Assembly (NCBI GenBank): GCA_965220255.1
Contig: OZ244816.1
Coordinates: forward strand, 369,124 to 433,123
DNA: 64,000 bases
Reading direction: 5' to 3'
DNA from: Dehalococcoidia bacterium
GTDB lineage: Bacteria > Chloroflexota > Dehalococcoidia > Lucifugimonadales > VXLM01
The notes under the pieces were generated by a model. It saw only the letters and a program-made list of their open reading frames with translations. It was not told where the DNA came from and did not search any database. A program made the translations under genes and the position numbers. This document shows positions 17,920-56,406 of this stretch, piece after piece. The stretch's first letter is position 1. Each line of letters begins with the position of its first letter.

Positions 17920-17925
17920 GGGGCT

Positions 17926-21104: not shown

Positions 21105-21255
21105 TCAAGCGTCTCCGTTCCGGCTGAAAAAGTACGCGAGAGTTATACCTGACTGGACTGGTTTCGTAAAGCGGGAGGAGGGAGGAGGAAGGATCTGGGT
21201 GCTAGGTTCTGGGTGCTGGTCTCCTCTCTGTGCCTCTCCCGCGGTGGGCTGACAG

Positions 21256-34512: not shown

Positions 34513-35553
34513 ATGGAGCGCGAAATGACTGCATCTATCCCCAGCCTCTTGCCCACAACCGTCATCGGGAGCCACGCCTACCCGGGCTGGATGTGGACGG
34601 CTTTGGACGAGATCGAGAAGGGCGGATACGGCGTCACCGATGAGCGCGAGCTGTACGACGACGCCGTGAATATGGCGATGCTCGACCAGGAGAAGGCGGG
34701 CGTCGACATCATCTCCGACGGGGAGATGCGCCGCTGGTACTTCGTGCAGAGCTTCTACAAGCGGATTGCGGGGATAGAGCAGGAGCCTGAGCTTCGGAAG
34801 GTTGGGCTGTACGGTTATGACTCTCCGCCTCGCTACAAGGCCATTGACAAGCTCGGCGTGCCGGGTGGTCTTGGTATCGTCGAGGAGTACCGGTATGCTC
34901 GGGCCAACACGACCAAACCCATCAAGATGACCTGTCCCGGGCCCCTGACGCTGACGATTCACATTCGTCCAGGCGACGTGTACAGGGACCGGGTCGAGAT
35001 GTCCTGGGAATTCGCGAAGGCGATCAACAGGGAACTCAAGGCATTGGTGGCCGAAGGCGTCGACTACATCCAACTCGACGAACCCTCCTTCGCCGTTATT
35101 CCGGGTCAGCTCGATGACTGGATCGACCTATACAACGCGGCGGTGGAGGGGGTGAATGCGAAGCTGGCACTGCACATCTGCTTTGGGAATCTCACCAGCA
35201 GGCCACGCGGCAAGCGCTCGTTCGCGTGGATGTTCCCGAAGGTGCAGGAGTGCCGGTACGACGAACTGGTGCTCGAATACGCAAACCGGGAGATGAGCGA
35301 GATCGAACACTGGAAGGACTGGGTCGGCGACAAGAAGCTTGGCATTGGGGTCATCGACGTGAAGTCGTTCTATGTCGAGAGCCCCGAGGACGTGGCGGAG
35401 CGTATCCGGCTCGCGATGCAGTACGGCCCGGCTGAACAACTGGTGGTGAACCCTGACTGCGGATTCTTCCAGCTTCCCCGGTGGATTACGCGGCTCAAGC
35501 TGGAGTCGATGGTGGCGGGAGCGAAGATCGTGCGCGGCGAGCTGGGACAGTAG
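34513..35553 (+). CDS. Cobalamin-independent methionine-synthase-like protein (MetE C-terminal catalytic-domain family); start ATG 34513 or 34525
   Basis: PTTVIGS..YP; zinc-ligand contexts LHICFGN and NPDCGF. About 345 aa, so only the catalytic half of a full MetE. Confidence 0.75.
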   Translation: MEREMTASIPSLLPTTVIGSHAYPGWMWTALDEIEKGGYGVTDERELYDDAVNMAMLDQEKAGVDIISDGEMRRWYFVQSFYKRIAGIEQEPELRKVGLYGYDSPPRYKAIDKLGVPGGLGIVEEYRYARANTTKPIKMTCPGPLTLTIHIRPGDVYRDRVEMSWEFAKAINRELKALVAEGVDYIQLDEPSFAVIPGQLDDWIDLYNAAVEGVNAKLALHICFGNLTSRPRGKRSFAWMFPKVQECRYDELVLEYANREMSEIEHWKDWVGDKKLGIGVIDVKSFYVESPEDVAERIRLAMQYGPAEQLVVNPDCGFFQLPRWITRLKLESMVAGAKIVRGELGQ

Positions 35554-35564
35554 AGTTCTTGCCG

Positions 35565-35849
35565 ATGCTACAGGTCACGGACGCGGCAAGGGACGAGCTC
35601 AAGACTATCCTGGACTCAAGGAGCCTCCCGGAGGGACGGTTCTTGAAACTGGCGGTCAAGCCGGAGTGGACGGGCCCAGGCGACTTCGGAGTGGTCATCG
35701 ATATGGAAAAGGGCGGCGAGATCTTCTTCGAGCACGAAGGAACGGTCGTCCTCGCGATCGATCCGGGACTCGCCGAGAATCTCGAAAGCTCAGTGTTCGA
35801 CTTCAAGCAGACGCCCCAGGGAGCGGGCTTCACGCTGGACGTATATTAG
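35565..35849 (+). CDS. HesB/IscA-like fold protein lacking the conserved cysteines
   Basis: 94 aa from ATG 35565. The pattern M.QVTDAA...L......FLKLAVK.....G.FG...D.......FE..G..V.ID......L..SV.DF......GF.L matches the IscA scaffold layout, but no Cys is present. Confidence 0.45.
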   Translation: MLQVTDAARDELKTILDSRSLPEGRFLKLAVKPEWTGPGDFGVVIDMEKGGEIFFEHEGTVVLAIDPGLAENLESSVFDFKQTPQGAGFTLDVY

Positions 35850-35948
35850 GCCGTTCGGGGAGTGGCAAGGATGACAAGCTCGTGCGGTAGTTTCAACGAT
35901 CCCCACACTGACGCAAGTTCCACTTTGCGTCACGCCCGGTATCGATAG

Positions 35949-36770
35949 TTGCGCAACTCCGATGTGACAGTCAGGTCGTCGGAAGCTCGGTTTCTATCCG
36001 GTGTGGACGACATCGTCCAGTCATTCGTCAGGACTCCGCTCTGGATTACCCTCGGTTGGTACGACTTCGAGCTGCAGTACCGTCGAGCATTCATTGGCCC
36101 TCTGTGGGAAGTCATTATTGTAGGAGTGTGGGTAGCCGGGCTGGGCCTTCTCTTTGGTCGCCTGCTTGGTCACGATCAGGGAGACTACCTGGTATACATG
36201 GCGGCCGGCGTGGTGCTTTGGCAGTACGTGTCAAATACGCTCACGACGGGGGCGAACGTATTCGTCGTGAATGCGCGGCAGATCGTTTCAATCAACAACC
36301 CACTCTATACCTACGTACTACGGAACGTCGTCGAGCACATGGTCAAGTTGGGTATCCATTCGCTGGTGTTCATTGCCGTCATGATTATCACGCAAACTCC
36401 TGTTAAGCCGATGATGCTTCTCGCGCTCCCGGGACTGGTGACCCTGGCTGTCACCACCTTATGGGCTGTACCGCTATTGGGATTCATCGGGACGAGGTTC
36501 CGTGACTTTACACATCTTCTCCGAGCGGTGATGAGGTTTCTCTTCTTTGCCACGCCGGTATTCTGGTACGCAGACGGCCTGAACGACCGGGCCTATCTGG
36601 CGAACTACAACCCATTCACGCACTTCCTCGAGATCGTGAGGGCGCCGCTGACCGGTGAGACGGCCTCCTTGACCTCGTGGGGAGTCGTCTTGGCAATTAA
36701 CGTCGTCGGCATCGCGATCATGTTCGCGACGTACAGTCGGCTGCGCAGATCACTCACGCTCTGGATCTGA
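35949..36770 (+). CDS. wzm: ABC-2-type polysaccharide/teichoic-acid export permease (Wzm/TagG/KpsM-like); start uncertain (TTG 35949 or GTG 35964)
   Basis: About 270 aa, 6 TM helices. ...LGWYDFELQYRRAFIGPLWEVI... has the N-terminal motif typical of ABC-2 exporters. It sits 3 nt upstream of the cognate ATPase gene. Confidence 0.75.
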   Translation: MRNSDVTVRSSEARFLSGVDDIVQSFVRTPLWITLGWYDFELQYRRAFIGPLWEVIIVGVWVAGLGLLFGRLLGHDQGDYLVYMAAGVVLWQYVSNTLTTGANVFVVNARQIVSINNPLYTYVLRNVVEHMVKLGIHSLVFIAVMIITQTPVKPMMLLALPGLVTLAVTTLWAVPLLGFIGTRFRDFTHLLRAVMRFLFFATPVFWYADGLNDRAYLANYNPFTHFLEIVRAPLTGETASLTSWGVVLAINVVGIAIMFATYSRLRRSLTLWI

Positions 36771-36773
36771 TTC

Positions 36774-38312
36774 ATGGATAGCGACTACGCCATCAGCTTG
36801 CAGGACGTGACGCTGGAGATTCCGGCGCGGCGCCGAATTCCGCATCGCGCAAGAAGGGGGACGAGCGCGTCCCAAGCTGCGCCTACGCAGATCGGTGGGA
36901 GGCTGAGCTTCGGTCGTGGATCCTCAACCACCGTCACGATCTTGGACGGCGTGAACATCGCCATTTCAAAGGGACAGCGCGTCGGTCTCATTGGGGCTAA
37001 CGGGGCCGGCAAGAGCACTCTCTTGAGGGTGATAGCAGGAATCTACCACCCTACACGCGGGGTTGCGGAGACCCGGGGAACGATATCCACCCTGTTCCCG
37101 GAACTCCTCGGCGTGCGACCTGACGCCACCGGGCTGGAGAACATTGTTCTCACCGGAGTCCTTCTTGGTCTGACGAAGAAGGAGATCAGTAGAAGGTTAC
37201 CGGAGATCATCGAGTTCACGGAGCTCGGCGATTACATCTACATGCCTATTCGGACGTACTCGACGGGAATGCGTACCCGGCTCGTGCTGTCGATAGCGAC
37301 GTGCATTCGCCCTGACATTCTCCTCGTTGACGAGGTGATCGGCGTCGGGGACAAGAGCTTTCGGCTCAAGGCCAAGGACCGTTTCAATGAGATGATGACC
37401 TCCGCGAATACTCTGATAGTCGTCTCACAGTCTCCCGAGATCATCCGCGAGTTCTGCACCGAGGCGATCTGGCTGGAGCGCGGCCAGGTGAGGAACATGG
37501 GGCAAGTGGACGACGTGCTGCGTGCGTATGCTGCCCATGCGGCAGGCACAAACGAGGGAATGGCCTCTGACTCCAAGACGCTGCTGGAGGCACGCGACAA
37601 CCTTGCCGGGGATGGGAACCTGAACTGGTCGCCGGACATACCAATCACAAGCTGGGATGGCGTCACGGTTGGGGGCAACCCAAGTCGGGTGACCCGGCTG
37701 ATTCTCCGCGAAAGCCAACTCAGGGGTTCAGTTCCGAAGGCGTTGGGGGATCTTGCGGAGCTTACTCACCTGGACCTTCGAAGCAATCAATTGAGCGGAG
37801 AGATTCCGTCGGGATTGGGACGACTTTCAAAATTGGTGATACTCGACCTCCATAGCAACAACTTGGAAGGTCCAATCCCTCCGGAATTGGGTAAACTCAC
37901 CGACCTGAAGGTCCTCAATCTACACAGCAACAGGTTGAGTGGCCCCATCACCAAGGAACTCAGTCAGATCACATCACTAGAAGGGCTATACCTTCACAAC
38001 AATCGATTGAGCGGTACAATACCGGTTGAGTTGGGCAATCTCAGGATTCTGGATAACCTGTGGCTCTCCACCAACCGGCTGAGCGGGGAAGTGCCCGCCG
38101 AGCTTGGCAATTTGACCGACCTTACCAAGCTCAGCCTCCACGGCAACCGGTTGAGTGGGACCATACCATCCGAGTTGGGAAACCTCGGCAAAAGCCTGCA
38201 GTTCTACCGCCTCAGCGGAAACAATTTCGTTGGGTGCATTCCGGCTGGGCTGGCAAACGTAGCTGACACGGACCAACACCAGCTCGGTCTGCAGGTATGC
38301 TCAGACAATTGA
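36774..38312 (+). CDS. wzt: Polysaccharide-export ABC ATPase (Wzt/TagH-like NBD) fused to a C-terminal plant-type leucine-rich-repeat domain
   Basis: 512 aa. Walker A GANGAGKST, YSTGMRTRL signature, Walker B ILLVDEVIGVGD. From aa 283 (nt 37620): LNWSPDIPITSWDGVTVGG..RVTRLIL cap, then eight 24-aa repeats L..L..L.L..N.LSG.IP..LG. Confidence 0.8.
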   Translation: MDSDYAISLQDVTLEIPARRRIPHRARRGTSASQAAPTQIGGRLSFGRGSSTTVTILDGVNIAISKGQRVGLIGANGAGKSTLLRVIAGIYHPTRGVAETRGTISTLFPELLGVRPDATGLENIVLTGVLLGLTKKEISRRLPEIIEFTELGDYIYMPIRTYSTGMRTRLVLSIATCIRPDILLVDEVIGVGDKSFRLKAKDRFNEMMTSANTLIVVSQSPEIIREFCTEAIWLERGQVRNMGQVDDVLRAYAAHAAGTNEGMASDSKTLLEARDNLAGDGNLNWSPDIPITSWDGVTVGGNPSRVTRLILRESQLRGSVPKALGDLAELTHLDLRSNQLSGEIPSGLGRLSKLVILDLHSNNLEGPIPPELGKLTDLKVLNLHSNRLSGPITKELSQITSLEGLYLHNNRLSGTIPVELGNLRILDNLWLSTNRLSGEVPAELGNLTDLTKLSLHGNRLSGTIPSELGNLGKSLQFYRLSGNNFVGCIPAGLANVADTDQHQLGLQVCSDN

Positions 38313-38334
38313 CCGGAATCAGCGTCAAGCAAGC

Positions 38335-41133
38335 ATGGTAGAAACACATAAGCCCGAATCAATGGAACACACGCATGTGAGAGATCGTGTCTCCCAGGTG
38401 TACCTTGGCATCATGGACTGGGGTCCCATGGGCGACGTTCTCCGTCGTCGAGTCGACTGGATGGCTGAGCAGGCCCAGGGGCCCAGAGTGTTGGACGTGG
38501 GCTGCAGTGAGGGGATCCTGGAGGTGCTGCTCGCACGCCGTGGAATGGACGTTACGGGTGTGGAGGTGAACCCCGACGCCCTTGAATTCGCTTACGAACT
38601 GCTTGCCGAAGAGCCGGACGAGGTACGCAGCCGCGCGAAGCTGATTCAAGGGGACTTCATCTCCGAGCGGCCGGTAACCGGTCATTTCGACACCGTTGTC
38701 CTGGGCGAGATTCTCGAACATCTCCACGATCCCGGTCCGCTGCTGGAGCGGAGCCTGGAGCACTTGCGCCCGGGTGGGCTGCTCGTCATTACGACCCCCT
38801 TTGGACTGCATCCACACGAAGACCATCATCAGACCTTCTACCTTACGGACATGATCGACGCGCTCAAACCGAGGCTTGCACTTGAGCACATGAGCGTGGA
38901 GGACAGCTATATACGCTTCGTTGGCAGCATGTCGGAGAACTGCGAGGCTTCCTGGCAGTGGCTCGATGCCGAGGCGGTCTTATCCATGACACAGACGGCG
39001 CTCGTCGCCTCAGACGCCAAGCTGGACGAAATGCTGACGAAGCGAGAGGACCGGATCCAGGAACTCACACGCCAGAGGAACTATCTGAGAGATGAGAACC
39101 AGGACCTCAAGCGACAGGTCAGGTTCGACAAGATGGCATTGGGCCGGTTTAAAAGAAACCTCGATGCCAGGACGGGAGAAGTACGGGTACTCAGGCACCG
39201 ACTGCAGTCAGCATATTCGAGTACATCCTTCCTAACCGGAGCAGCATTGGTGCGCGCCGTCAAGCAGCCGCACACTCTGTGGAAGCTTCCGTTACAGATG
39301 TTGCGCCTTTATGGAGCCGCTTCCAAACCTTCGGCAGAACTCACCCCGGATGAAGACCTGGCCAAGCGATACAAGTACATTCCCAAGAGTCTGAATCTAG
39401 ACATCACGGAATTCCTCACCTACCCGCCCATGGACTTGCCTGAGGCAAAGTCGGACGGTCCGCCTGTTGCAGCCATTCTCGACACATTCACTGAGCACTC
39501 TCTGCGATATGAGGCAAATCTCCTGCTGTTGTCCCTCGAGAATTGGCGCGATCAATTGGAGAAGACCCCGCCCGCCTTCCTCTTTGTCGAGTCAGCCTTC
39601 AGCGGCAACAACCGTGAGTGGCGACACAAGATAGTCGGCTACGAGAACCTTGAGGACAATCCGCTCCGAGAGTTGCTGCAATACTGCCGTTCGAAGGGGA
39701 TCCCAACGGTATTCTGGAACAAGGAAGACCCTCCACACTTTGATGACTTTATCGGAGCCGCCAGAGAGTTCGACTACGTATTCACGTCCGATGAGCACTG
39801 TGTCCCGATATATCGCGAGACCTTGGGTCACGACAGGGTCTACGTAATGCCTTTCGCCGCACAGCCGCGGCTCCACAATCCGTCTCAGGAGGAAGGTTGG
39901 CCCAACTATCCCGTGTGCTTTCCGGGAAGCTGGCAGCAGCACAGATATCCTGAACGCGCGGAGGCGCTTCAAAACATGCTGGACCCTGCCCTACCGCTCG
40001 GCCTTCATATATTTGATCGTAATCTCACGCGAAGGGACTTGGGTCCGTACTATCGCTTCCCGGATCAATACAAGGAAGCGATCAAGGGTTACCTCACGTA
40101 CCAAGAAATGCTGACGGTGTACCGGTGTTACGACGTGCTCCTGAACGTGAACACCGTGAGCGACTCTCCAACGATGTTCTCACGCCGAGTCTTCGAGAGT
40201 CTCGCATGTGGGACTCCCGTGATCTCCTCGGAGTCGGTGGGCATGAGCCGGATGCTCGGAGAGCACGTCAGAGTAGCGCACAGCAAGGAAGATACGATAG
40301 ACCACCTGTTGGAACTGATGGGGGATGAAGAAGCACGTATTCGAGAAGGGCACAAAGCTTACCGCTTCGTGCATGAGAACCACACCTACCGGCACCGGAT
40401 GAATGAGGTATTCCGGAACATAGGAATGGAATCGCTCGTTACCGAACAGCCGTCGGTGAGCGTCCTTATGCCCACCATGCGTCCCGAAAACGTGCTTCGA
40501 TGCATCGAGAATTTCACAAAGCAGGAATATGGGAATAAGGAACTGATCCTCATCCTGAACAATGCGGAGTTCGATCTCGATGACGTCCGAAAGCACACCG
40601 CCGGTATTCCCAACATCCAGGTGCTTCATGTCGAGGGGCGCACGACCTTGGGAGACTGTCTAAACAGGGGAGTGGCGGCGGCATCCGGCAGCTACGTTGC
40701 CAAGATGGACGATGACGATCATTACGGAGAACGGTTCTTGTCTGACAGTATTCTCGCAGCCTCGTTTTCGGATGCCGAGGTCGTTGGGAAGGCATCGTTC
40801 TTCATGTATTTCGAGGACGCGGACACAACGGCCCTTGCTGAAGTTGCGCGTGAGCACACATTCACCCATTTCGTAACTGGCGGGACGATGTTCATACGGT
40901 CCGACGTTGCCGGAGAAATACCATTCGATCCGATTTCGCTGAGGGAAGATACGAACTTCTTGCACGCCGCGACACAGGCCGGATGCCGTATCTACGCCGC
41001 CGACCGGTTCAACTTCATTCGGGTGCGGACAGACGATGTGTCCAATCACGCGGATCCGACGCCAGACATGGAGTTCCTCAGAAGGTGCAGGGCGAAGACG
41101 CCCGGCCTTGACCTGGACCGCGTGATGATATGA
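38335..41133 (+). CDS. Multidomain glycan-assembly protein: class I SAM methyltransferase, coiled coil, CgeB-like (GT1-fold) glycosyltransferase, GT2 glycosyltransferase
   Basis: 932 aa. Methyltransferase motif I VLDVGCSEGILEVLLARRG (aa about 45-165). Heptad-rich charged segment aa about 222-295 (KLDEMLTKREDRIQELTRQRNYLRDENQDLKRQV...). CgeB-like block aa about 375-695 (IPTVFWNKEDPPHFD..., LNVN...SPTMFSRRVFESLACGTPVIS). GT2 block aa about 705-900 (SVLMPTMRPENV..., AKMDDDDHY). Confidence 0.75.
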   Translation: MVETHKPESMEHTHVRDRVSQVYLGIMDWGPMGDVLRRRVDWMAEQAQGPRVLDVGCSEGILEVLLARRGMDVTGVEVNPDALEFAYELLAEEPDEVRSRAKLIQGDFISERPVTGHFDTVVLGEILEHLHDPGPLLERSLEHLRPGGLLVITTPFGLHPHEDHHQTFYLTDMIDALKPRLALEHMSVEDSYIRFVGSMSENCEASWQWLDAEAVLSMTQTALVASDAKLDEMLTKREDRIQELTRQRNYLRDENQDLKRQVRFDKMALGRFKRNLDARTGEVRVLRHRLQSAYSSTSFLTGAALVRAVKQPHTLWKLPLQMLRLYGAASKPSAELTPDEDLAKRYKYIPKSLNLDITEFLTYPPMDLPEAKSDGPPVAAILDTFTEHSLRYEANLLLLSLENWRDQLEKTPPAFLFVESAFSGNNREWRHKIVGYENLEDNPLRELLQYCRSKGIPTVFWNKEDPPHFDDFIGAAREFDYVFTSDEHCVPIYRETLGHDRVYVMPFAAQPRLHNPSQEEGWPNYPVCFPGSWQQHRYPERAEALQNMLDPALPLGLHIFDRNLTRRDLGPYYRFPDQYKEAIKGYLTYQEMLTVYRCYDVLLNVNTVSDSPTMFSRRVFESLACGTPVISSESVGMSRMLGEHVRVAHSKEDTIDHLLELMGDEEARIREGHKAYRFVHENHTYRHRMNEVFRNIGMESLVTEQPSVSVLMPTMRPENVLRCIENFTKQEYGNKELILILNNAEFDLDDVRKHTAGIPNIQVLHVEGRTTLGDCLNRGVAAASGSYVAKMDDDDHYGERFLSDSILAASFSDAEVVGKASFFMYFEDADTTALAEVAREHTFTHFVTGGTMFIRSDVAGEIPFDPISLREDTNFLHAATQAGCRIYAADRFNFIRVRTDDVSNHADPTPDMEFLRRCRAKTPGLDLDRVMI

Positions 41134-42854
41134 CGAAGGCGTTGCTCGCCACGCTCATCGTCCTGGCGCTGGGATGTGGAGGGGCTGATCCGGCGTCAAT
41201 TCGAAAAACCGAGCCGGCGAATAACGACAAGGTAACGAACCAAACACCAACCGCCAATTCACAAGACCCGATTCGCCCTCCGGCAAGCTGGCAGGTTCAG
41301 GCCGATGGCGGGCCGAGAGTGACCGAACTGACCCTGGGCCGCAAGCCGGACGGTCCGTGGAAGTTTCAACCACGTTACGACGACCCGGAATGGGATGCCT
41401 CTCTCCCAACCGATTGGTCCGCCGATCCCTTCGAAGACCTCAATTGGCAGCATCATCTCCATTCCTGGCGCTCAATGGAGTTTTGGCTGAATGAATTTCT
41501 CCGAACCAACGATGCTGATCTTCTCCGGCATCCTATAGATATAGTCCTTGACTGGCATCGATTCCACATTGAGGAGGGCAGGGTCAGCCACCTTCAGTGG
41601 TACGATGACGCGACCGGAGTACGCGCATCTCGGCTGGCCTTTCTCCTCGAGTTCATTCTGGAGGACGAAATCGAGGTCAGCGATGACAACCTCGCTCGGC
41701 TCATGACCTTGGCTGACCTGCATGTCGAGAAGCTCATGGACCCGGAGTTTCTCAGTTCCAACAATCACGGCCTCTTCCAAATGGTGGGGCTTGATGCGCT
41801 ATGCTCCGTCACGGGTTGGAGAGAGGCTTGTCGTGGAGCCGGAGAATACGCAAGGGATTCGTTCGTTAGATTGATAGGGACCTGGTATACCGAGGAGGGA
41901 GTAAACGTAGAGAGTTCGCCAACGTACCACTACTGGGTCACAGAGAAGATTCGCGAGTTGGGGGCCTCTGAGCGCTTCCGGCACCCTGATGTGCAGGAGA
42001 TACTTGAGGAGGCCGACGAAGTCTCCCCCTGGCTGACATATCCGGACGGGAGGTGGGTCCGCGTGGGGGACAGCCATGGCGAAGGCCCAAAGTTGACCGG
42101 CTCCGTCCCGTCTACGTGTCTTCCGGAAGGCGGAGGCTGTTGGGCGGTTCGAGACCTGAGCAAATCGGGCTATGCGCTTGTTCGATCATTGCCGGAGGTC
42201 GAGGCAAGCCGGTCGAGCATGTTGTTCGTCGGCGGGACTACGGCTCCAACGGGACACAAGCACGCCGATGACCTCGGATTCGTACTCATAGAGGGTGGTC
42301 AAGATATCTTCATCGACAGTGGAAGGTACGGTTACAACTATGATGCGGCCCGTAATTACGTGTTGAGTGCGCGGGCGCACAACATACCGAGCCTCGTGGA
42401 TAGGCGAATCGATCCCTACGTTATCGATCCCGAGAAGTCGCATCTGGGACCGCTCAGGGTGGAGGAAGGTCAATTCACCATCAGTGGCGTCGTCGACAGA
42501 CCGTGGCTGCTCGTCCACGAGCGAAAGCTGTCGTACATTCCAGGAGTGATGCTCAGGATAGAGGACAAGCTGGACAACCGAACCGAGTCCCGGTGGCAGT
42601 CCAACCTGCATCTTGCGCCTAGACTCATTCCCGAAATTAGCGAGGCGGGTTTCGTTGTCACTGCCGGTGAATTGACCGTGCAGGCGGAGTTTAGCGGTGA
42701 GGGCTGCAGTATATCCGCAGCCCGGGGAGAGACCGACCCATACCAGGGTTGGGTGTCGGTCGGATACTTGGAGCTTGCCCCGGCTTCGGTTGTCGTCGCG
42801 ACCTGTCCCGCCGACTTGGTAGAGAGCTCATGGCACATCACGTTCGAGCGCTGA
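41130..42854 (+). CDS. Secreted (possible lipoprotein) heparinase II/III-like / alginate-lyase-like protein
   Basis: 574 aa. Signal LLATLIVLALGCGG. C-terminal GHKHADDLGFVLIEGGQDIFIDSGRYGYNYD...ARAHN is typical of Hepar_II_III. The ATG overlaps the upstream stop (ATGA). Confidence 0.65.
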   Translation: MTKALLATLIVLALGCGGADPASIRKTEPANNDKVTNQTPTANSQDPIRPPASWQVQADGGPRVTELTLGRKPDGPWKFQPRYDDPEWDASLPTDWSADPFEDLNWQHHLHSWRSMEFWLNEFLRTNDADLLRHPIDIVLDWHRFHIEEGRVSHLQWYDDATGVRASRLAFLLEFILEDEIEVSDDNLARLMTLADLHVEKLMDPEFLSSNNHGLFQMVGLDALCSVTGWREACRGAGEYARDSFVRLIGTWYTEEGVNVESSPTYHYWVTEKIRELGASERFRHPDVQEILEEADEVSPWLTYPDGRWVRVGDSHGEGPKLTGSVPSTCLPEGGGCWAVRDLSKSGYALVRSLPEVEASRSSMLFVGGTTAPTGHKHADDLGFVLIEGGQDIFIDSGRYGYNYDAARNYVLSARAHNIPSLVDRRIDPYVIDPEKSHLGPLRVEEGQFTISGVVDRPWLLVHERKLSYIPGVMLRIEDKLDNRTESRWQSNLHLAPRLIPEISEAGFVVTAGELTVQAEFSGEGCSISAARGETDPYQGWVSVGYLELAPASVVVATCPADLVESSWHITFER

Positions 42855-42925
42855 CTTGCCAAACGTAGTAGGCTTACTCATAAGCTGGACTAATACCACG
42901 GAGTTGGCCGAGATAGCAGGCTGAT

Positions 42926-44041
42926 ATGCGCATATTGTCAGTCGTTGGGACACGTCCCGAAGCTGTGAAGATGGCAATGGTGGCGCGCACCCTCGCAGCA
43001 GCCGAGGGAATCGAGCATGAGCTGTGTGTCACAGCGCAGCATCGGGAAATGCTGGACTCGGTGCTGCGGCTGTTCGAGCTTGAACCTGACTATGACCTGA
43101 ATGTGATGACCCCTGGGCAGGACCTCACGGACGTCACAGGTGCGGTCTTGACCGGAATGCGAGACGTGCTCTCGGAGGTCAAGCCCGATCGAGTTCTCGT
43201 TCAGGGCGACACGACAACGGTCTTGGCAACCGCATTGGCCGCGTTCTACGCTAAGATTCCCGTCGGGCACGTGGAGGCAGGCCTGAGGACAGGCGACATG
43301 TCGGCCCCCTGGCCTGAGGAGATGAACCGTAGGCTGGCCGACGCACTCAGCGACCGCCACTACGCACCCACTGAGACGGCTCGCAAGAGACTACTGGAGG
43401 AAGGCCTGCCGGATTCCGGGATCGTGGTGACCGGCAATACGGTGATAGACGCGCTCCTGCACATCGTTGACCATCTGAAAAGCGACCCGGAGCTTGAACG
43501 TGAGGCGGAGGAACGCCTGCCCACACGGGACCGCGCGCATAAGCTCATTCTTGTTACCGGCCACAGACGTGAGAGCTTCGGCGTGGGCTTCGAGCAGATC
43601 TGCAGGGCAATCGCCCAGATTAGCAGACGAGACGACGTGGAGATAGTGTATCCGGTGCATCTGAATCCGAGAGTGCGTGAACCTGTGTTCCGCCATCTGG
43701 CCGATCTTCCCAATGTTCATCTGATAGAACCGCTAGACTATTTGGCATTCGTGCATCTGATGAATGAGGCGCACCTGATCGTGACGGACTCCGGAGGAAT
43801 TCAAGAGGAGGCCCCCTCGCTGGGGAAACCCGTGCTTGTGATGCGCGATACGACAGAGCGGCCGGAGGCAATTGCCGCAGGGACGGTGAAGTTGGTGGGT
43901 ACGGACGCTCAACGCATCACCTCGGAAGTTTCGCGGCTGTTGGATGAACCTGGCGTTTACACATCCATGGCGCGAATACACCATCCCTACGGCGACGGGC
44001 GAGCCAGTGAACGGATACTCAAGGACTTGACGGGTGGTTAA
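42926..44041 (+). CDS. wecB: UDP-N-acetylglucosamine 2-epimerase (non-hydrolysing)
   Basis: 371 aa. [17 protein letters not shown]..., [44 protein letters not shown]. Confidence 0.9.
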
Positions 44042-45290
44042 GGGCTTGGAGCGAGTTTGTGTGGTGGGTCTCGGCTATGTGGGACTGCCTACCGCGGCGG
44101 TCTTGGCAAGTCGTGGAGTCGACGTGATCGGAGTCGATATCGACGGCGACCGCGTCGATGAGATCAATTCAGGACGGTCTCCATTTGAAGAGCCGGGTCT
44201 AGACTCCCTTGTCGATGGTTCAGTGGCAAACGGGACTCTGACAGCGCGCACCAATCCTGTCCCGGCCGATGCGTTTGTCGTGGCAGTTCCGACCCCTGTC
44301 AGGGAGGACCGGAGCCCTGATGTCAGCTATGTGCGCGCGGCGGTCGAAAGTGTGGCACCCACTCTGCGGAAGGGCAACCTCGTGGTCGTGGAGTCGACGT
44401 GTCCCGTCGGGACGACGGAGAAGGTCTGCGAGTGGCTGGCGACGGCGCGACCTGACCTGACGTTCCCTCACACCGTAGGCGAGACGAGCGACATCCGTGT
44501 GGCATACTGCGCCGAGCGCATTCTGCCGGGGAACGCCTTGAAAGAGCTGATCGAGAACGATCGTGTCATCGGCGGAGTGAGTTCGTCATGCGCGGAGGCG
44601 GCGAAGCGGCTGTACGAAACGTTCGTCGAAGGGGTCTGCAGGGTTACGGACGTGCGCACGGCCGAACTGTCGAAGCTTACCGAGAACGCCTTCCGAGACG
44701 TCAATATTGCGTTCGCCAACGAGATGTCGATGGTCTGCGAGGCCCTGGGCATTGATCCATGGGAGATGATAGCGCTGGCAAACAGGCATCCCAGGGTTGA
44801 TATCCTCAACCCAGGACCCGGCGTCGGGGGACACTGCATACCGGTTGACCCCTGGTTCATCGCCAGCGCTGCGCCCGACCTCACGCCTATGATCCAAACC
44901 GCGCGACGGGTAAACGATGAAATGCCGAAGGTAATCGCGGACAGGGTGATTGCCGAGTGTGAAGGTCTTGGCAGTCCCATTGTCGTGTGCCTGGGACTGG
45001 CCTATAAGGCGGATGCGTCAGACATGCGGGAGAGTCCGTCCATTGAAGTCGTCAAACAATTGCAGGGGAATCTCAGGGGAAGACTACTGGTCGTCGAGCC
45101 GTTTGTTTCCGAGCTGCCTCAGGAGCTGCGAGGCGACGGGAAGACCGTGCTGGTCGGACTTGACGAAGGGATTGCGGAAGCGGACGTAGTGGTGCTGCTC
45201 ACGAATCACAGCGCCTTTTCGGACATAGACAGAGAGCTGCTTTCGTCGAAGGTGGTGGACTCGCGTGGACTTTGGAAGCGCATCGGCTGA
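44034..45290 (+). CDS. wecC: UDP-N-acetyl-D-mannosamine dehydrogenase (UDP-ManNAcA-forming)
   Basis: 418 aa, GTG start overlapping wecB by 8 nt. [12 protein letters not shown] Rossmann, catalytic-Cys context [28 protein letters not shown]. Confidence 0.85.
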
Positions 45291-45347
45291 AAACACCGGT
45301 CGGCGCCCACGATCAAGAGCCGGCGCCAGGGGTGGAACGCAAGTGAG

Positions 45348-46592
45348 ATGAAAATTCTCGTACTCACCCAGAACTTTCCGCCTGAGGTTGGAGCAACTGC
45401 CGCCCGCCTGCACAGAATGACGAAGAGTCTGGCCGAGCGGGGGCACCAAGTCACCGTCATCACGGCAATGCCGAACTACCCAACCGGACGGGTCTTCGAC
45501 GGATATCGCGGCAAGGTCAGGTCTGTTGAGGAGACCGATGGCGTCAGAGTAGTCCGTACGTGGTCGTTTCCGTCCAAGTCATCGAACTCACTCCTGAGAT
45601 TGATAGGCTACGCATCGTTCGCGCTGTCAAGTCTCCTGCTGGGAATGAGGGGCCTTGGACGTCAGGATATCGTCCTCTTCGACACTCCTCCCCTACCACT
45701 TGTTCCCACCGGACTTGTATTGGGACGTGTTACCGGCGCCCGGGTGGTCATGAACGTCTCCGATATCTGGCCTGAGATGGCAGTGCAGCTGGGATATCAA
45801 GTAGGAAGGCTCTCGATGTGGGCGCTGAAACGGCTGGAGCGTCTCGGCTACGAGAAGTCGGATGTCGTTACAACGACTACAAGTGCGGCCAAAGAGAAGA
45901 TCAGCCGGCGATTTCCCCATGTTCGCACTGCGGTTATCAGCAACGGCACAGACCTTAGGATGTTCAACCCTTCGCTCAGGAACCAAGAAGTCCGTGATTC
46001 GCTGGACGCTCAGGCGGAAGACTTTCTGGTCGGCTACATCGGCCTGCACGGACTGTTTCAGGGCCTGGAGGTCGTCGTGGAGGCGGCAGACAGGCTACGC
46101 GGGCACAAGGCGATCAAGTTCGTCATGATCGGAGACGGCCCCCGTAAAGATGCGCTCAGAGACCTCGCAGAGCGCAAGAACCTCGACAATCTTCAATTCC
46201 TTGACCTCGTGGACAGGGAGAGAATTCCTTCGATACTCGCCTCGTGTGATGCGGCACTTGTCCCGCTTGCGGCGGAGTTTCCCAGTACGATTCCCTCGAA
46301 GGTCTATGAGATTATGGCATCGGGAGTGCCGGTGGTTATCAGCACGGGTTGCGAGGGCGCCGGAATAGTGGAAGAAGGCAAGGCGGGGCTGACATTTCGT
46401 CCGGGTAATGCCATAGAACTTGCGGAGGCCCTAACTTATCTGGAGGCAAACAAGGAAGAGACTGCTCTCATGAGAAAGAATTGTCGAAAACTCGCCTCCC
46501 ATTTCGACTATGACCGAATTGCCGAGCAGACCGAGTCTTTCCTGCTGGCGATCGCGAACGGGACAGCCAGTCCCTTGAATAAGGGAAAGTAA
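45348..46592 (+). CDS. GT4-family glycosyltransferase (WcaI/WbuB-like)
   Basis: 414 aa. MKILVLTQNFPPEVGATAARL...; C-terminal E-x7-E-like context PSKVYEIMASGVPVV. Confidence 0.8.
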   Translation: MKILVLTQNFPPEVGATAARLHRMTKSLAERGHQVTVITAMPNYPTGRVFDGYRGKVRSVEETDGVRVVRTWSFPSKSSNSLLRLIGYASFALSSLLLGMRGLGRQDIVLFDTPPLPLVPTGLVLGRVTGARVVMNVSDIWPEMAVQLGYQVGRLSMWALKRLERLGYEKSDVVTTTTSAAKEKISRRFPHVRTAVISNGTDLRMFNPSLRNQEVRDSLDAQAEDFLVGYIGLHGLFQGLEVVVEAADRLRGHKAIKFVMIGDGPRKDALRDLAERKNLDNLQFLDLVDRERIPSILASCDAALVPLAAEFPSTIPSKVYEIMASGVPVVISTGCEGAGIVEEGKAGLTFRPGNAIELAEALTYLEANKEETALMRKNCRKLASHFDYDRIAEQTESFLLAIANGTASPLNKGK

Positions 46593-46731
46593 TCATCGGA
46601 GAAGCTGTGGGGGATTTCGGCCAAATTTCGGAAAATGGATAGACTTTGACACAACAAAAGGCATGTGCGATAGTATGGCCACTTGAGTGTGCGAAGGTAC
46701 GAAGCCAAGACACGTTAGGAGGCAGTTCAAA

Positions 46732-47295
46732 ATGGAATCTGTATTTCTGATTCTCATTGGGGCGGCGTTGTTTTCTCAGTCCTGGCACGTCATGGGGCTG
46801 TACCCGGACGGCAGGACTGTGGGGATCTTCGTTGGCGGACTTGGAGTCCTGTCGCTTGCGGCTGCCATCGTGCTTGATCCGATGCTGCTGACCGGTTCGG
46901 GCGACAAGGCGATTTCAGCGGCCAACCATATGGCCGAGGTCACGGCTACGAAGGTCCTTATCGCCGTGTGGGGGCTCTACTGCATAGGAGTTGCCGCGCA
47001 GTCGCTCTGGGATCTTGAGGAGCGGGCGGTGGGCTTTTTCAGCTTGATCGTAACGGTCGTGACTGCTGTCGTCTTCCTCTACTACGCCGGAGTCCTGGAA
47101 CCTCGGTACGGGGAGAACATTTGGCTCGGTCTCTCCGCTGCCTCGCTGCTTCTGACGATCATTTCCGCAGTGGTGTTCTTTGCGCTGGGGTTCACGTTCA
47201 ACGTCATGCGGGCCGTCGCGGGATGGACCCTGCTGCTATGCGGGGGAACCGTCGGGATTATTGGCTTGGCTGTCGCCGTTCGCGCGATTGCTTAG
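46732..47295 (+). CDS. AmiS/UreI-family-like channel protein (6 TM)
   Basis: 187 aa from ATG 46732, preceded by AGGAGG. The N-terminal pattern FLILIGAALFSQSWHVMGLYPDGRTVGIFVGGLGVL resembles the UreI/AmiS LLYVG..L..NG...L......A..NFFVGGL. This is recalled similarity only. Confidence 0.5.
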   Translation: MESVFLILIGAALFSQSWHVMGLYPDGRTVGIFVGGLGVLSLAAAIVLDPMLLTGSGDKAISAANHMAEVTATKVLIAVWGLYCIGVAAQSLWDLEERAVGFFSLIVTVVTAVVFLYYAGVLEPRYGENIWLGLSAASLLLTIISAVVFFALGFTFNVMRAVAGWTLLLCGGTVGIIGLAVAVRAIA

Positions 47296-47358
47296 AACAG
47301 CCGGGCGCCGGAGTGAGTATCTGAAGGTGGGGGAGCCCTTGGAGACGATCCCAAGGGG

Positions 47359-49365
47359 ATGATCGCTATGCCCGACAGCATCATGTCGATTGAGGAAATC
47401 CTGGCCGCGAGCGAGCGGGAGGCGTCTCTCTACGACTGGAAGGGAACCTTCGCCGACTACCTTGCCATGGTCGTGGAGAACCCTTCCTTAGTGAAGCTCT
47501 CTCATGCTCGCGTCCGCGACGCCATCCTCGCACAGAAGGTGGATACGTTACCTACGGGGGAGCCGGTCTATAGGCTGTTTGAACAGGACATCTTCGGCCT
47601 CGATGATGTGCTCAAACAAATTGTCGAGTACTTCGAGGCGGCGGCAAAGGGCGAGGAGACGAGGAAGCGTATTCTCCTGCTTCTCGGCCCCCCGGCTAGC
47701 GGCAAGTCGACTATCGTTGCCCTCATCAAGAAGGCGTTGGAGGACTACACCCGCACCGACGAAGGGGCCGTCTACGCCATCGCGGGCTGTCCCATGCAGG
47801 AGGAGCCGCTCCACCTGATACCGCACTCGCTGCGGCCCGTTCTAGAGGAGCAGTATGGTATCGAGATCGAGGGGGAACTGAACCCCAGAAACCGCTATTT
47901 GCTCAGGACGAAGCACAACGGGAACATCGCCGATGTGCCCGTGGAACGCGTCGTGTTTTCCGAGCATGAGGCGGTGGGAATCGGGTACTACGTGGCAACG
48001 AACCCGAACGCCGACTCTTCTCTCCTCGTCGGAAGCATCGACACCGATCGCCTTGACGGAGACCGCACCGAAGTAGCGGGAAAAGCGTTCCGCATGGACG
48101 GCGAGTTCAACGTGGCGAACCGCGGCATGATCGAGATGGTAGAGATATTCAAGGCCGACAAGCACCTGCTCACGACCCTGTTGGGACTGGCCCAAGAACA
48201 GGTCATAAAGATGGAGAAGTTCGGCTCGATCTACTCCGATCAGGCCATCATCGGCCACTCCAACGAGGGCGACTTCAACACGTTCGCCCTCGACGAGCAC
48301 TCGGAGGCGCTCAAGGACCGCATCATCGCCATTCACGTACCCTACAACTTGCGCGTCAGCGAGGAAGTGAAGATATATGGCAAGATCACCACGAGGAGCG
48401 AAGAGGCGGATGTCTGCATTGCGCCTCTCACATTGCAAGTCGCCAGCACGTTCGCCGTCCTCTCTCGGCTCGACCAGCCCACCCGCCAGGGTATGACGCT
48501 GCTGGACAAGATGCGTCTCTACGATGGGCGGATGGTGGGGTCGTACTCGCGCCAGGACGCGGTCGAGATGAGACGGCATCATGCCGACGAAGGGATGAAC
48601 GGAATATCGCCTCGATACGTTATGAACCGCATCGCCGCCGTCGCCAGCACTCCCGGCGTCAAGTGTGTGACTCCGCTGGCGGTACTCGAGAGCCTGTGGC
48701 AAGGCATGAGCGAGAACGTCAGTCTTGATCAGGCAGGCAGGACGGCCTTCATAGGTCTGGTAAGCGATACCGTCAGCGAGTACAACGAATTGGCCGTCAC
48801 CGACGTCCAGCGAGCGTTCGACGAGTCGTTCGACGAGACTGCGGCGATCCTGCTGGCCGGCTACCTCAAAAGCGCGCGGGCCTACTGCTCCGGTAAAGAA
48901 CCGGATGACGACGATGTGGGGTTCGACGAACGCGACATGCAGGAAATCGAGCGTCCCATCAACGTTCGAGAGAAAGATAAGAAGGCCTTCCGCAAGGAGA
49001 TTGACCGTCTGGCATTCTTGTTCGAAAAGCGTGGCCGCAGGTTCGACTACGCGACCGAGCCGAGGCTCAAGGCGGCAATCGAATCTCGCCTCTTCCCGTC
49101 GACCCGCGAACTGCAGCGAGGCCTCACCAGGCCTCGATTCGCTCGTCAACGCGCCGAGTGGTCGCAGCGGCGTATCTCCATCGTCAAGCGCCTGATCGAT
49201 AAATATGGCTACTGTGCCGTCTGCGCCGAAGACCTCCTACAATACGTGACCGAGTTGCTTCAGAAGAAGACAATGTTCAGGACACCCAAGAACGAGGGGG
49301 TCGAGTGGCAGTGGGACCTCTACCCGACGAGCGCGACCCTGGTCCCGCCGTCCGAGGAGAGCTAA
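47359..49365 (+). CDS. prkA: PrkA-family serine protein kinase / AAA+ ATPase (YeaG-like)
   Basis: 668 aa. WKGTFADYLAMVVENP (compare B. subtilis PrkA WEGTFADYLEIIKENP). Walker A LLLGPPASGKST. FGLDDVLKQIVEYF. Confidence 0.85.
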   Translation: MIAMPDSIMSIEEILAASEREASLYDWKGTFADYLAMVVENPSLVKLSHARVRDAILAQKVDTLPTGEPVYRLFEQDIFGLDDVLKQIVEYFEAAAKGEETRKRILLLLGPPASGKSTIVALIKKALEDYTRTDEGAVYAIAGCPMQEEPLHLIPHSLRPVLEEQYGIEIEGELNPRNRYLLRTKHNGNIADVPVERVVFSEHEAVGIGYYVATNPNADSSLLVGSIDTDRLDGDRTEVAGKAFRMDGEFNVANRGMIEMVEIFKADKHLLTTLLGLAQEQVIKMEKFGSIYSDQAIIGHSNEGDFNTFALDEHSEALKDRIIAIHVPYNLRVSEEVKIYGKITTRSEEADVCIAPLTLQVASTFAVLSRLDQPTRQGMTLLDKMRLYDGRMVGSYSRQDAVEMRRHHADEGMNGISPRYVMNRIAAVASTPGVKCVTPLAVLESLWQGMSENVSLDQAGRTAFIGLVSDTVSEYNELAVTDVQRAFDESFDETAAILLAGYLKSARAYCSGKEPDDDDVGFDERDMQEIERPINVREKDKKAFRKEIDRLAFLFEKRGRRFDYATEPRLKAAIESRLFPSTRELQRGLTRPRFARQRAEWSQRRISIVKRLIDKYGYCAVCAEDLLQYVTELLQKKTMFRTPKNEGVEWQWDLYPTSATLVPPSEES

Positions 49366-49460
49366 TCGCATCAAGTGACCGGACAGGCGCCCGCCCATTG
49401 GGCCGGGTGACCGGGACCGGGACATACCGAACAATCCGTTCTGCTTAGGAGAAGACATCC

Positions 49461-49934
49461 ATGAGCGTACATCTCGAATCCGGCGACAAGGCCCCATCCT
49501 TTTCCCTTCCCTCATCCAGTGGCGGAACCGTCTCGCTGGACGCGCTGCAGGGTAAGAAGGTGGTGCTGTATTTCTATCCCAAGGACGACACGCCGGGCTG
49601 TACCAAGGAGGCCTGCGGGTTCCGCGACAGCAAGGACGACCTGGACGCGGAGGACCTCGTCGTGTTGGGAGTCAGCGCCGACGACCTCGACTCTCACCAG
49701 CAGTTCATCGATAAGTTCCACCTGAATTTCCCACTTCTTGCCGATGTCGATCGAACGTGCATCGACGCTTATGGCGTGTGGGGAGAAAAGGAACTGCGCG
49801 GCCAACGTATGGTAGGCATAATCCGAAAGACCTTCCTCATCGACGAGGAGGGCACGATCATGAAGGCCTGGCACGAGGTCCAGCCTGAGGGCCACGCCCA
49901 GGAAATACTACAAGTCGTTCAAGGCGGAGCGTAG
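49461..49934 (+). CDS. bcp: Thiol peroxidase Bcp (peroxiredoxin Q type)
   Basis: 157 aa. VVLYFYPKDDTPGCTKEAC active-site motif. Confidence 0.9.
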   Translation: MSVHLESGDKAPSFSLPSSSGGTVSLDALQGKKVVLYFYPKDDTPGCTKEACGFRDSKDDLDAEDLVVLGVSADDLDSHQQFIDKFHLNFPLLADVDRTCIDAYGVWGEKELRGQRMVGIIRKTFLIDEEGTIMKAWHEVQPEGHAQEILQVVQGGA

Positions 49935-53555: not shown

Positions 53556-53887
53556 CACAGGGGTGGAGTGTTCGCCTCAACAACTCTGAACACTTACGAC
53601 GTGGATGTTAAGGCATGATGATCCCTGCAGGCTTGAGACGATATGGGATTCCTAGCGGGAATGGAAAGTGGGATCCGGCCTCCGCCGGAATGCCGTGGGG
53701 CTCTTCGGCGAAATGACCGAGGCAGTAGGATCAGGGAGGCTTTCGCGGTCGTGACAAGTGCTGAGACAGAGGGGGGCGTATACTGGAACGTTGATTGACT
53801 TATCTTCCTATAAATGCTAAAAGTGAGGGAACGCAATTCGAACCGGCAACAAAGTGCGGAAATGAGATTCTCAATTCTGAGAGGAGA

Positions 53888-56338: not shown

Positions 56339-56406
56339 ACCGACAGATTGAAACACACCATCCGTTCGCCCTCCGACAAGCGCGGGGTGAACGGATGGAA
56401 AAAGCC

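Follow-up and report, generated by a model that had tools for sequence, protein, structure and literature searches.

A probable glycan assembly locus in Dehalococcoidia

The pathway in which glycans are chain-terminated and then exported by an ATP-binding cassette (ABC) transporter is the textbook model of how bacteria measure the length of a glycan and control its quality, and nearly all of what is known of it comes from Enterobacteria. A 64,000-nt stretch of a contig from a Dehalococcoidia bacterium (OZ244816.1; the whole stretch is referred to here as the window) contains a seven-gene locus that raises the question of whether such a pathway is encoded in this lineage, and of what a leucine-rich repeat (LRR) tail might do on its Wzt subunit, where it occupies exactly the position that a carbohydrate-binding module (CBM) has in characterized Wzt proteins. 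A preliminary description had placed the seven genes on the + strand at 35949-46592. The coordinates of the open reading frames (ORFs) and their junctions matched exactly, and scans with Pfam and NCBIfam bore out all the gene identities proposed:

35949-36770, + strand: wzm, ABC-2 type glycan-export permease (273 aa, TTG start)
36774-38312, + strand: wzt, nucleotide-binding domain (NBD) plus LRR (512 aa)
38335-41133, + strand: methyltransferase/coiled-coil/glycosyltransferase (GT)/GT fusion (932 aa)
41130-42854, + strand: heparinase II/III-like gene, Hepar_II_III_C lipoprotein
42926-44041, + strand: wecB, non-hydrolysing UDP-GlcNAc 2-epimerase
44034-45290, + strand: wecC, UDP-ManNAc dehydrogenase, which makes UDP-ManNAcA (the UDP-activated form of N-acetylmannosaminuronic acid, ManNAcA)
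45348-46592, + strand: WcaI-like GT4 glycosyltransferase (Pfam/NCBIfam)

From wzm to the GT4 gene, neighbouring genes are separated by 3 and then 22 nt, overlap by 4 nt, lie 71 nt apart, overlap by 8 nt and, at the last junction, lie 57 nt apart. The first of these junctions is that between wzm and wzt, whose adjacency is a hallmark of the ABC-dependent pathway. Two further features of the pathway, a terminator domain in tandem with a coiled coil and polymerizing GTs in the same chain, have predicted counterparts in the fusion protein. Of the defining features of the terminated pathway that can be read from the locus itself, all were found except one, the cap-reading CBM; an initiating transferase and a ligase or oligosaccharyltransferase were not found in the 64-kb window. 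As judged from its sequence, the locus probably encodes an ABC transporter-dependent assembly line for a chain-terminated acidic glycan (rough probability, 0.6), and the pathway class put forward in the preliminary description, namely ABC-2 export of a terminated glycan ruled by a coiled coil, holds. Gene identities, synteny, coil lengths quantized in heptads, a conserved concave LRR face, and the fold and complete catalytic residues of a lyase were all observed. To a glycobiologist the overall pathway would be familiar; the LRR substitution is what would be surprising, and it is testable.

Conservation of the locus

Twenty-three related Dehalococcoidia loci, most of them of sponge origin, were compared by tblastn, 20 of which extend far enough for the gene order to be judged. 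The order wzm-wzt-fusion-wecB-wecC was kept in all 20 (56-98% protein identity), and the GT4 gene sat after wecC in every locus whose DNA reaches that far. Since the order recurs in all the judgeable loci, the arrangement is far from chance. In the clade closer to the window (L001-L012), the wzm orthologues were 81-98% identical and occupied the same position. The flanks of this clade were also fixed, with dnaJ and a metE-like gene upstream, and the gene for a 202-aa membrane protein and prkA downstream. The conserved order and the fixed flanks therefore indicate a core chromosomal feature, not an island.

The seven genes do not, however, form the fixed unit initially described. The conserved core is wzm-wzt-fusion-wecB-wecC-GT4, while the presence of the heparinase-like gene, the number of copies of the fusion gene and the LRR vary. 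The window and six other loci have a single fusion gene, and 14 have it duplicated in tandem. A Wzt with the LRR tail was confined to the closer clade (L001-L012; L013 ends inside wzt), the Wzt of the sister clade being a bare NBD of 254-262 aa with no C-terminal domain. Separation of wzt-LRR from the gene for the coiled-coil GT in homologous loci had been named beforehand as grounds for abandoning the proposal; the two were adjacent in every Wzt-LRR locus.

Sister-clade loci have a variable slot between the flank and wzm, filled with combinations of three kinds of gene (L014, 6658-9031; L018, 4349-8821; L054, 5313-7618). One encodes a stand-alone LRR protein of 251-284 aa with a transmembrane anchor, and lies on the opposite strand beside wzm (L014, L018 and L054). 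Another encodes a second heparinase II/III lipoprotein, with both N and C domains, which is 27% identical to the one inside the locus. The third encodes a polytopic protein of 446-490 aa with a faint match to PMT_2 (GT-C; E 0.017), on the strength of which it is a weak candidate for an extracytoplasmic transferase. Used as a single-sequence query, this GT-C-like protein retrieved four close relatives only, all from the sister clade.

The fusion protein: putative terminator, ruler and polymerase

The 932-aa fusion protein is divided as follows:

38392-38964, + strand: class I S-adenosylmethionine (SAM)-dependent methyltransferase domain, aa ~20-210 (Pfam Methyltransf_23/12/25/11)
38968-39210, + strand: coiled coil, aa ~212-292 (continuous helix over 212-276 in the AlphaFold2 [AF2] model)
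39220-39312, + strand: invariant post-coiled-coil motif SSTSFLTGAALVRAVKQPHTLWKLPLQMLRLY, aa 296-326, more conserved than any other non-catalytic part
39457-40419, + strand: first GT module, GT-B-like, CgeB type (Pfam PF13524, Glyco_trans_1_2, 2.4e-20; PF12996, DUF3880)
40450-41133, + strand: second GT module, GT2, GT-A fold (Pfam Glycos_transf_2, 2.9e-10)

The methyltransferase domain, which is proposed to be the chain terminator, was modelled with a pLDDT of 80-92, matched class I methyltransferases in Foldseek and PDB searches, and has a nearly invariant SAM motif (VLDVGCSEG). The coiled coil that follows keeps a constant heptad register, has 40-54% charged residues and contains no Pro. Among 115 full-length homologues, length variation was confined to this coiled coil, the catalytic modules being fixed. 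It measured 57, 64, 68, 75, 82, 89, 96, 103, 110, 117 or 124 residues, and the lengths of 58 of the 115 homologues were congruent modulo 7, compared to some 16 expected. Changes in heptad steps are what a continuous coiled coil does when both of its ends must stay in register. The natural series spans roughly 8 to 18 nm, and these properties suggest that the coil acts as a molecular ruler. With more than 100 homologues whose coils differ by whole heptads, from 57 to 124 residues, it provides a natural allelic series for the ruler model.

The amphipathic moment of the invariant motif located after the coil peaks at 0.46-0.56 at residues 304-310, making this motif a candidate membrane or partner docking element. 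The first GT module is 260 aa long in 106 of 116 aligned sequences, and its AF2 model was poor. The second matched GalT1 in the PDB (5hea, 7.7e-8); its DxD motif is MDDDD at 791-795, with D792 and D793 invariant. For the fusion as a whole, the mean pLDDT was 58, only the methyltransferase and the long helix being confident, and Foldseek returned generic class I methyltransferases only, a result that neither supports nor excludes kinship with WbdD or WbbB.

Some loci of the sister clade encode, in addition, stand-alone proteins of 347-359 aa in which a methyltransferase is followed by a short coiled coil and then by this motif (L019, 16645-17724; L015, 16478-17521). They end 11-17 residues past the motif, are 25% identical to residues 48-326 of the fusion (E 2e-15), and lie between the second fusion gene and either the heparinase-like gene (L019) or wecB (L015). 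They look like WbdD-style separate terminators added to loci that already have two fusions. Their layout is that of WbdD, and the N-terminal third of the fusion would therefore correspond to a WbdD-like terminator-ruler module.

Where the fusion gene is duplicated, the tandem paralogues are about 75% identical in the GT modules and only about 40% identical in the coiled coil. In three of the duplicated loci (L009, L010 and L017) the first copy has no methyltransferase, its reading frame beginning inside the coiled coil, which suggests that one terminator per locus is enough.

Comparison with characterized terminated systems

It has been shown experimentally that the terminator is placed at the distal end of a coiled-coil ruler, and that the polymerase GTs are either in the same chain (O12 WbbB, O7 ORF6) or recruited (O9a WbdD/WbdA; PMC11231755). 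ORF6 of Klebsiella pneumoniae O7 resembles the fusion described here in that a single chain begins with a methyltransferase terminator, has a coiled-coil ruler in its middle and ends in two GTs (PMC11231755), and the O7 cluster likewise has an extra stand-alone GT and a Wzm/Wzt exporter. ORF6 is nevertheless about 1414 aa long, and includes a kinase domain (its cap is a methyl phosphate) and an Ig-like CBM before the coil. The Dehalococcoidia fusion has no room for either, since its methyltransferase ends at about residue 210 and the coil starts at about 212. Both GT modules of ORF6 are GT2, rather than GT-B-like plus GT2, its sugars are rhamnose and ribofuranose, rather than the ManNAcA-containing polymer predicted here, and the O7 Wzt belongs to the CBM-bearing terminated class instead of carrying an LRR. 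WbbB of Klebsiella O12/Raoultella likewise unites a terminator, a coiled-coil ruler and two polymerase GTs in one protein, arranged from N- to C-terminus as in the fusion (Williams et al. 2017, as cited in PMC11231755), although its terminator is a β-Kdo (3-deoxy-D-manno-octulosonic acid) glycosyltransferase and the CBM of its Wzt is specific for Kdo. WbdD of Escherichia coli O9a/Klebsiella O3 shares the methyl-containing cap, the coiled-coil ruler and a C-terminal element after the coil for membrane or polymerase recruitment, a layout also shared by the stand-alone proteins of L019 and L015. It differs in having a kinase, in being separate from the polymerase WbdA, and in that a β-sandwich CBM on its Wzt reads the cap. 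No sequence-level match to WbdD was found among the best PDB matches of the fusion.

The slg cluster of Geobacillus stearothermophilus NRS 2004/3a, a monoderm S-layer glycan system, also has wzm, wzt and then a trifunctional methyltransferase plus two-GT protein, WsaE, which makes a 2-O-methyl cap (PMC2943079). It resembles the Dehalococcoidia locus as well in its overlapping stop and start codons, the nucleotide-sugar genes located downstream and a slightly low G+C content. A coiled coil is, however, not reported for WsaE in the review consulted, and its methylation does not depend on chain length in vitro (PMC2943079). Further, slg encodes the initiator WsaP and the O-oligosaccharyltransferase WsaB (Wzy_C), neither of which is present in the window; its product is a poly-rhamnan, not a uronic acid polymer, and it contains no LRR and no lyase. 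The preliminary description had called the locus a candidate undescribed variant. This does not apply to the methyltransferase/coiled-coil/GT/GT format, already known from O7 ORF6, O12 WbbB and Geobacillus WsaE; it stands, in narrower form, for the LRR tail and the embedded lyase. New, then, are the LRR tail on Wzt, the combination of a terminator-ruler with a bare NBD in the sister clade, and a PL12-like lipoprotein embedded in an ABC-dependent locus.

An exporter with a leucine-rich repeat tail

Wzm matched the NCBIfam model of the galactan Wzm/RfbD (NF050109; 7e-60, aligned over 12-273 of 272 profile positions) below the equivalog cut-off. It had no Pfam match, and shows multiple hydrophobic segments. 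Wzt has two parts:

36774-37568, + strand: NBD, aa 1-265 (Pfam ABC_tran)
37569-38312, + strand: C-terminal LRR cassette, aa 266-512 (Pfam LRR_1/LRR_8/LRR_14)

Among the NCBIfam models, the NBD matched Wzt/RfbE (1.2e-71, 240 bits) and TagH (4.5e-51); the nearest solved chains were the mycobacterial RfbE (9qfx, 1e-58), TagH (9cfl) and the Aquifex Wzt (6amx/8dku). The mycobacterial galactan exporter (RfbD/RfbE, 9qfx) thus provides the closest solved NBD and the best NCBIfam models for both subunits and, like the system proposed here, exports a polyprenyl-linked wall glycan in an organism without lipopolysaccharide. The scores fall below the equivalog cut-offs, so the Dehalococcoidia exporter is not its orthologue. 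No C-terminal domain follows the mycobacterial NBD (about 260 aa), which in this respect resembles the sister-clade Wzt and differs from Wzt-LRR. We know of no terminator-ruler enzyme in the mycobacterial galactan system.

The tail consists of an N-cap (LNW..WDGV), eight in-register 24-residue repeats (LxxLxLxxNxLSGxIPxxLGxL) and a Cys-containing C-cap. By repeat length, consensus and caps it is a complete cassette of the plant-specific type, and its best PDB matches were the ectodomains of two plant receptor kinases with LRRs, GSO1 and FLS2. Between the cassette and the NBD there is no hydrophobic segment, which places the LRR in the cytoplasm. The C-terminal 247 aa had no Pfam match to Wzt_C, the β-sandwich CBM. 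Every characterized terminated system has a cap-reading CBM at the C-terminus of Wzt (Kelly et al. 2024, PMC11231755), and what appears undescribed is precisely the presence of an LRR tail where those systems carry this β-sandwich. A literature search for a Wzt with LRRs returned no relevant paper, which is no proof of absence.

The Wzt-LRR architecture was found in about 70 clusters at ≥62% identity, with lengths that step by 24 aa (488, 512, 536, 560 and 584). The clusters with a named source (P0053 and P0067) and all twelve full-length genome loci were from Chloroflexota or Dehalococcoidia. In a library clustered at 50% identity, the best 150 matches to Wzt-LRR included a single NBD plus LRR representative (P0064); remote NBD-LRR fusions may lie beyond these 150. 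The others were giant multi-LRR proteins in which the same cassette, caps included, is used again, which indicates that the Wzt tail was drawn from a widespread pool of cassettes.

Among the 512-aa orthologues, the entropy of concave positions 5 and 7 of the repeats was 0.54 and 0.36, compared to 1.2-1.9 for the convex variable positions. These concave positions are thus conserved from orthologue to orthologue though they differ from repeat to repeat. The concave face contains a His/Arg ladder, Tyr, and the invariant Trp430. This conservation indicates that the concave face is a selected binding surface. The clade with the LRR and the sister clade with a bare NBD have orthologous terminators, and provide a natural comparison for addressing whether cap-reading is needed and whether an LRR can read a glycan.

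A heparinase-like lipoprotein within the locus

The heparinase-like protein has a signal segment (residues 1-22) with a lipobox (LALGC), followed by a disordered linker and a two-domain fold; the lipobox and signal segment mark it as an extracytoplasmic lipoprotein, in agreement with the location outside the cytoplasm assumed in the preliminary description. Its AF2 model (pLDDT 87) gave as top Foldseek matches the polysaccharide lyase (PL) family 12 heparinase III structures 5jmd, 4mmi and 4fnv (about 1e-20; TM-scores 0.56-0.66), and further matches to PL15/PL17 alginate lyases and PL33-type glycosaminoglycan lyases. A single-sequence PDB search found no relative; a family profile was required, which matched heparinase III at 4e-10 with 14-15% identity. 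When this profile was aligned with the Pedobacter heparinase III (4mmh; chain numbering plus 24), N212-H213, Y266-H267 and H376 fell on N240/H241, Y294/H295 and H424. Within the family, N212 and H213 are at least 90% conserved, and Y266, H267 and H376 are invariant. We take N240, Y294 and H424 to be the catalytic set of heparinase III. The protein is predicted from its modelled fold and these residues to be an accessory PL12-type uronate polysaccharide lyase. If so, its presence in an ABC-dependent locus is a new element.

The ATGA overlap with the fusion gene (GTG ATG ATA TGA / ATG ACG) was kept in seven other loci, from both clades, which argues for co-translation with the biosynthetic enzymes rather than for an unrelated catabolic role. 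One homologue of the protein carries an SLH domain, which supports a surface location. The proposed arrangement recalls AlgL of the Pseudomonas alginate operon, an operon-encoded uronate lyase that clears or trims the cell's own polymer outside the cytoplasm (PMC8829089), although AlgL is periplasmic and belongs to a synthase-dependent system of diderms, whereas the protein described here would be a dispensable PL12-like lipoprotein of an ABC-dependent system. In sequence family, AlgL is a PL5 enzyme.

In one locus (L003, OY759598.1, 17233-21536) the heparinase-like gene runs to approximately codon 168, is then interrupted by some 3.4 kb of inserted DNA, and resumes at 21246. Encoded on this DNA are a protein of the IS1595-like transposase type (309 aa), a protein of unknown function (319 aa) and a 511-aa DNA methyltransferase with an HNH domain. 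It looks like a mobile restriction-modification-like element that inactivated an accessory gene.

Sugar supply and functions missing from the window

WecB scored 500 bits against the equivalog model TIGR00236 (cut-off, 210) and matched Pfam Epimerase_2 at 4.6e-123. WecC scored 558 bits against NF008286 (cut-off, 459) and contains all three UDPG_MGDP_dh domains. Both thus pass their equivalog cut-offs, and their genes are adjacent with an 8-nt overlap, which upholds the supply of UDP-ManNAcA proposed for the pair. The GT4 protein matched Pfam Glycos_transf_1 and Glyco_trans_4_4 and, with 204 bits against a cut-off of 276, the WcaI family (NF007640); it is proposed to be either a primer/adaptor transferase or the ManNAcA transferase. 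The polymer would include ManNAcA and carry a methyl cap, and the ligand of the LRR, the substrate of the lyase and the final acceptor are likewise inferred.

At Pfam level, the 64-kb window contains no WecA/TagO/WbaP, LCP, Wzy_C/STT3 oligosaccharyltransferase or peptidoglycan genes, the remaining genes being housekeeping; the absence of an initiating transferase and of a ligase or LCP enzyme, observed earlier, was therefore confirmed. Genomes of SAR202 bacteria, sponge relatives of this lineage, have been reported to lack peptidoglycan synthesis genes (PMC6306507). If the host resembles SAR202, attachment by LCP would be irrelevant, and an S-layer protein or a lipid would be the likelier acceptor.

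A proposed mechanism

In the assembly line we propose, WecB and WecC would convert UDP-GlcNAc into UDP-ManNAcA. An initiating transferase encoded elsewhere would make the polyprenyl-phosphate primer, to which the GT4 protein would add an adaptor sugar, and the two GT modules of the fusion would then polymerize a repeat that includes the uronic acid. The post-coiled-coil motif would hold the fusion at the membrane, with the methyltransferase at the far end of a coil of about 9-11 nm, so that only chains long enough would reach it, receive an O-methyl cap and stop growing. Wzm/Wzt would export the finished lipid-linked chain. The LRR on Wzt, in place of a CBM, would most likely engage either the finished glycan terminus or the terminator complex, coupling completion to export. 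Finally, the lipoprotein lyase could optionally trim or clear the uronic acid polymer outside the membrane, as AlgL does for alginate.

Points against the proposal and rival explanations

Several observations weigh against this scheme or parts of it. The sister clade has a bare Wzt beside orthologous terminator-ruler enzymes; this lineage does not, then, depend on a cap reader, and the LRR may have some other function. In the sister clade, the stand-alone homologues of the LRR have an N-terminal transmembrane helix with positive-inside charges that place the LRR outside the cell, and therefore in a different compartment from that of the fused, cytoplasmic LRR. In similarity to the Wzt tail they do not stand out from generic cassettes (ranks 6, 45 and 125 of 198). 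LRRs, moreover, are as a rule protein binders. About nine of the 20 judgeable loci lack the heparinase-like gene, and in L003 a transposon disrupts it, hence it is dispensable. Neither an initiating transferase nor a ligase is present in the window, the GT modules model poorly (pLDDT of 58 for the whole fusion), and ManNAcA could sit in the linkage unit only. A Rosetta-stone argument from the stand-alone LRR genes is weakened by their generic level of similarity and their predicted outward facing. In three genomes of the sister clade a separate LRR protein, with the caps seen on the Wzt tail, is encoded next to the locus; that this association recurs is suggestive, and is no proof of a shared ligand.

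For the LRR itself, more than one role can be envisaged. It might be a protein-protein docking module that tethers the coiled-coil polymerase-terminator, or some other partner, to the exporter and thereby couples synthesis physically to export. LRRs are classically protein-binding, the invariant post-coiled-coil motif of the fusion offers a possible docking site, and the constraint on the concave face would fit a protein ligand equally well; this motif is, however, just as conserved in the sister clade, which has no LRR, so there is no specific co-occurrence, and a concave face with Tyr/Trp and His/Arg would also suit an acidic sugar. Docking is thus possible but doubtful. The bolder proposal is that the LRR is a non-lectin cytoplasmic reader of the glycan terminus that gates the ABC exporter in place of the CBM, with the outward LRR of the sister clade binding the same exported, acidic, capped glycan. 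We regard it as tentative and rather improbable; if true, this plant-type LRR of bacteria would be a module that recognizes carbohydrates on either side of the membrane. An NTPase joined to an LRR also recalls the layout of NLR-type sensors, and PADLOC gave weak matches for Wzt (mad3, 62.7 bits; AriA, 25.8 bits) and for the methyltransferase (mad2, 61.3 bits), which would make Wzt-LRR an NLR-like or ABC-ATPase immune sensor and the locus a defence island. These matches reflect generic P-loop and SAM-methyltransferase similarity, while the NBD scores 240 bits against Wzt/RfbE and 1e-58 against the solved NBD of the mycobacterial galactan exporter, wzt lies 3 nt from an ABC-2 permease gene, and the genes around it, which are conserved together, are for glycosyltransferases and nucleotide-sugar enzymes. 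A defence role, hardly credible on these grounds and on the TagH score, was rejected.

As regards the heparinase-like lipoprotein, it could be a catabolic enzyme that degrades sponge glycosaminoglycans or environmental uronic polymers, and be found in the locus by chance or through co-regulation. The lineage is sponge-associated and the sponge matrix has uronic acid glycosaminoglycans (PMC6306507); the closest folds are glycosaminoglycan and alginate lyases; and the gene is patchily present, with a 27%-identical paralogue upstream in some sister-clade loci. Yet in all loci that have it, it lies at one and the same place, after the polymerase gene and before wecB, its ATGA overlap in both clades implies translational coupling, the family is distinct and appears restricted to this locus context, and no genes for uronate catabolism or uptake are adjacent. 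We consider catabolism unlikely. Less probable still would be a polymer-level C5-epimerase that acts on ManNAcA after export, as AlgG does on alginate. Lyases of uronic polymers and C5-epimerases share the proton-abstraction step, the gene is embedded in a biosynthetic operon and its product is extracytoplasmic, and human dermatan-sulfate epimerase 1 combines a lyase-like fold with a His/Tyr/His site. All of the 37 top matches to solved structures were, however, lyases, and the N/Y/H set fits heparinase III specifically. Lyase and epimerase activities are inseparable from sequence alone.

Assembly, transcription and host

An 18,264-nt contig from an independent run assembly spans positions 34729-49500 with zero differences, so the locus is not a chimera. 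Its G+C content (0.577) is slightly lower than that of the rest of the window (0.604). No terminator-like site was found on the + strand inside the locus, and the sole well-placed promoter-like site falls 3′ of the GT4 gene. This is compatible with one transcription unit, but is no evidence for one; the seven genes may be transcribed as a single operon. No RNA runs were found beyond four of unstated kind, which have a flat depth and look like DNA assemblies.

The close relatives of the window were, without exception, metagenome-assembled genomes of uncultured Dehalococcoidia (Chloroflexota), and partial k-mer matches came mostly from sponge metagenomes (nine runs), with some from marine ones (two runs). 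The host is an uncultured sponge-associated Dehalococcoidia bacterium. The locus affords a view of the surface chemistry of these abundant uncultured symbionts, which presumably matters for host recognition.

Other features of the window

The 202-aa membrane protein encoded next to the locus (46687-47295) has five or six hydrophobic segments and a weak match to AmiS/UreI. Its gene has its own promoter-like site (TTGACA-17-GATAGT with TG, 46646-46674). Throughout the LRR clade it lies directly 3′ of the GT4 gene, a position at which it was not detected in the sister clade; it may belong to the flank or specify an accessory membrane component.

Farther away, two neighbouring genes on the - strand (15787-20019) encode large NHL/teneurin-type β-propeller proteins of 697 and 710 aa; repeat proteins of this eukaryote-like kind have been reported as enriched in sponge symbionts. 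A 920-aa ORF on the - strand (53594-56356), the longest in that region, was discarded as a spurious Arg/Val/Ala-rich antisense frame with no Pfam match. The true gene lies opposite, on the + strand (53795-56338, 847 aa), and encodes the solute-binding lipoprotein of the preliminary description, with a long Pro/Ala-rich tether after the lipobox Cys, as described there.

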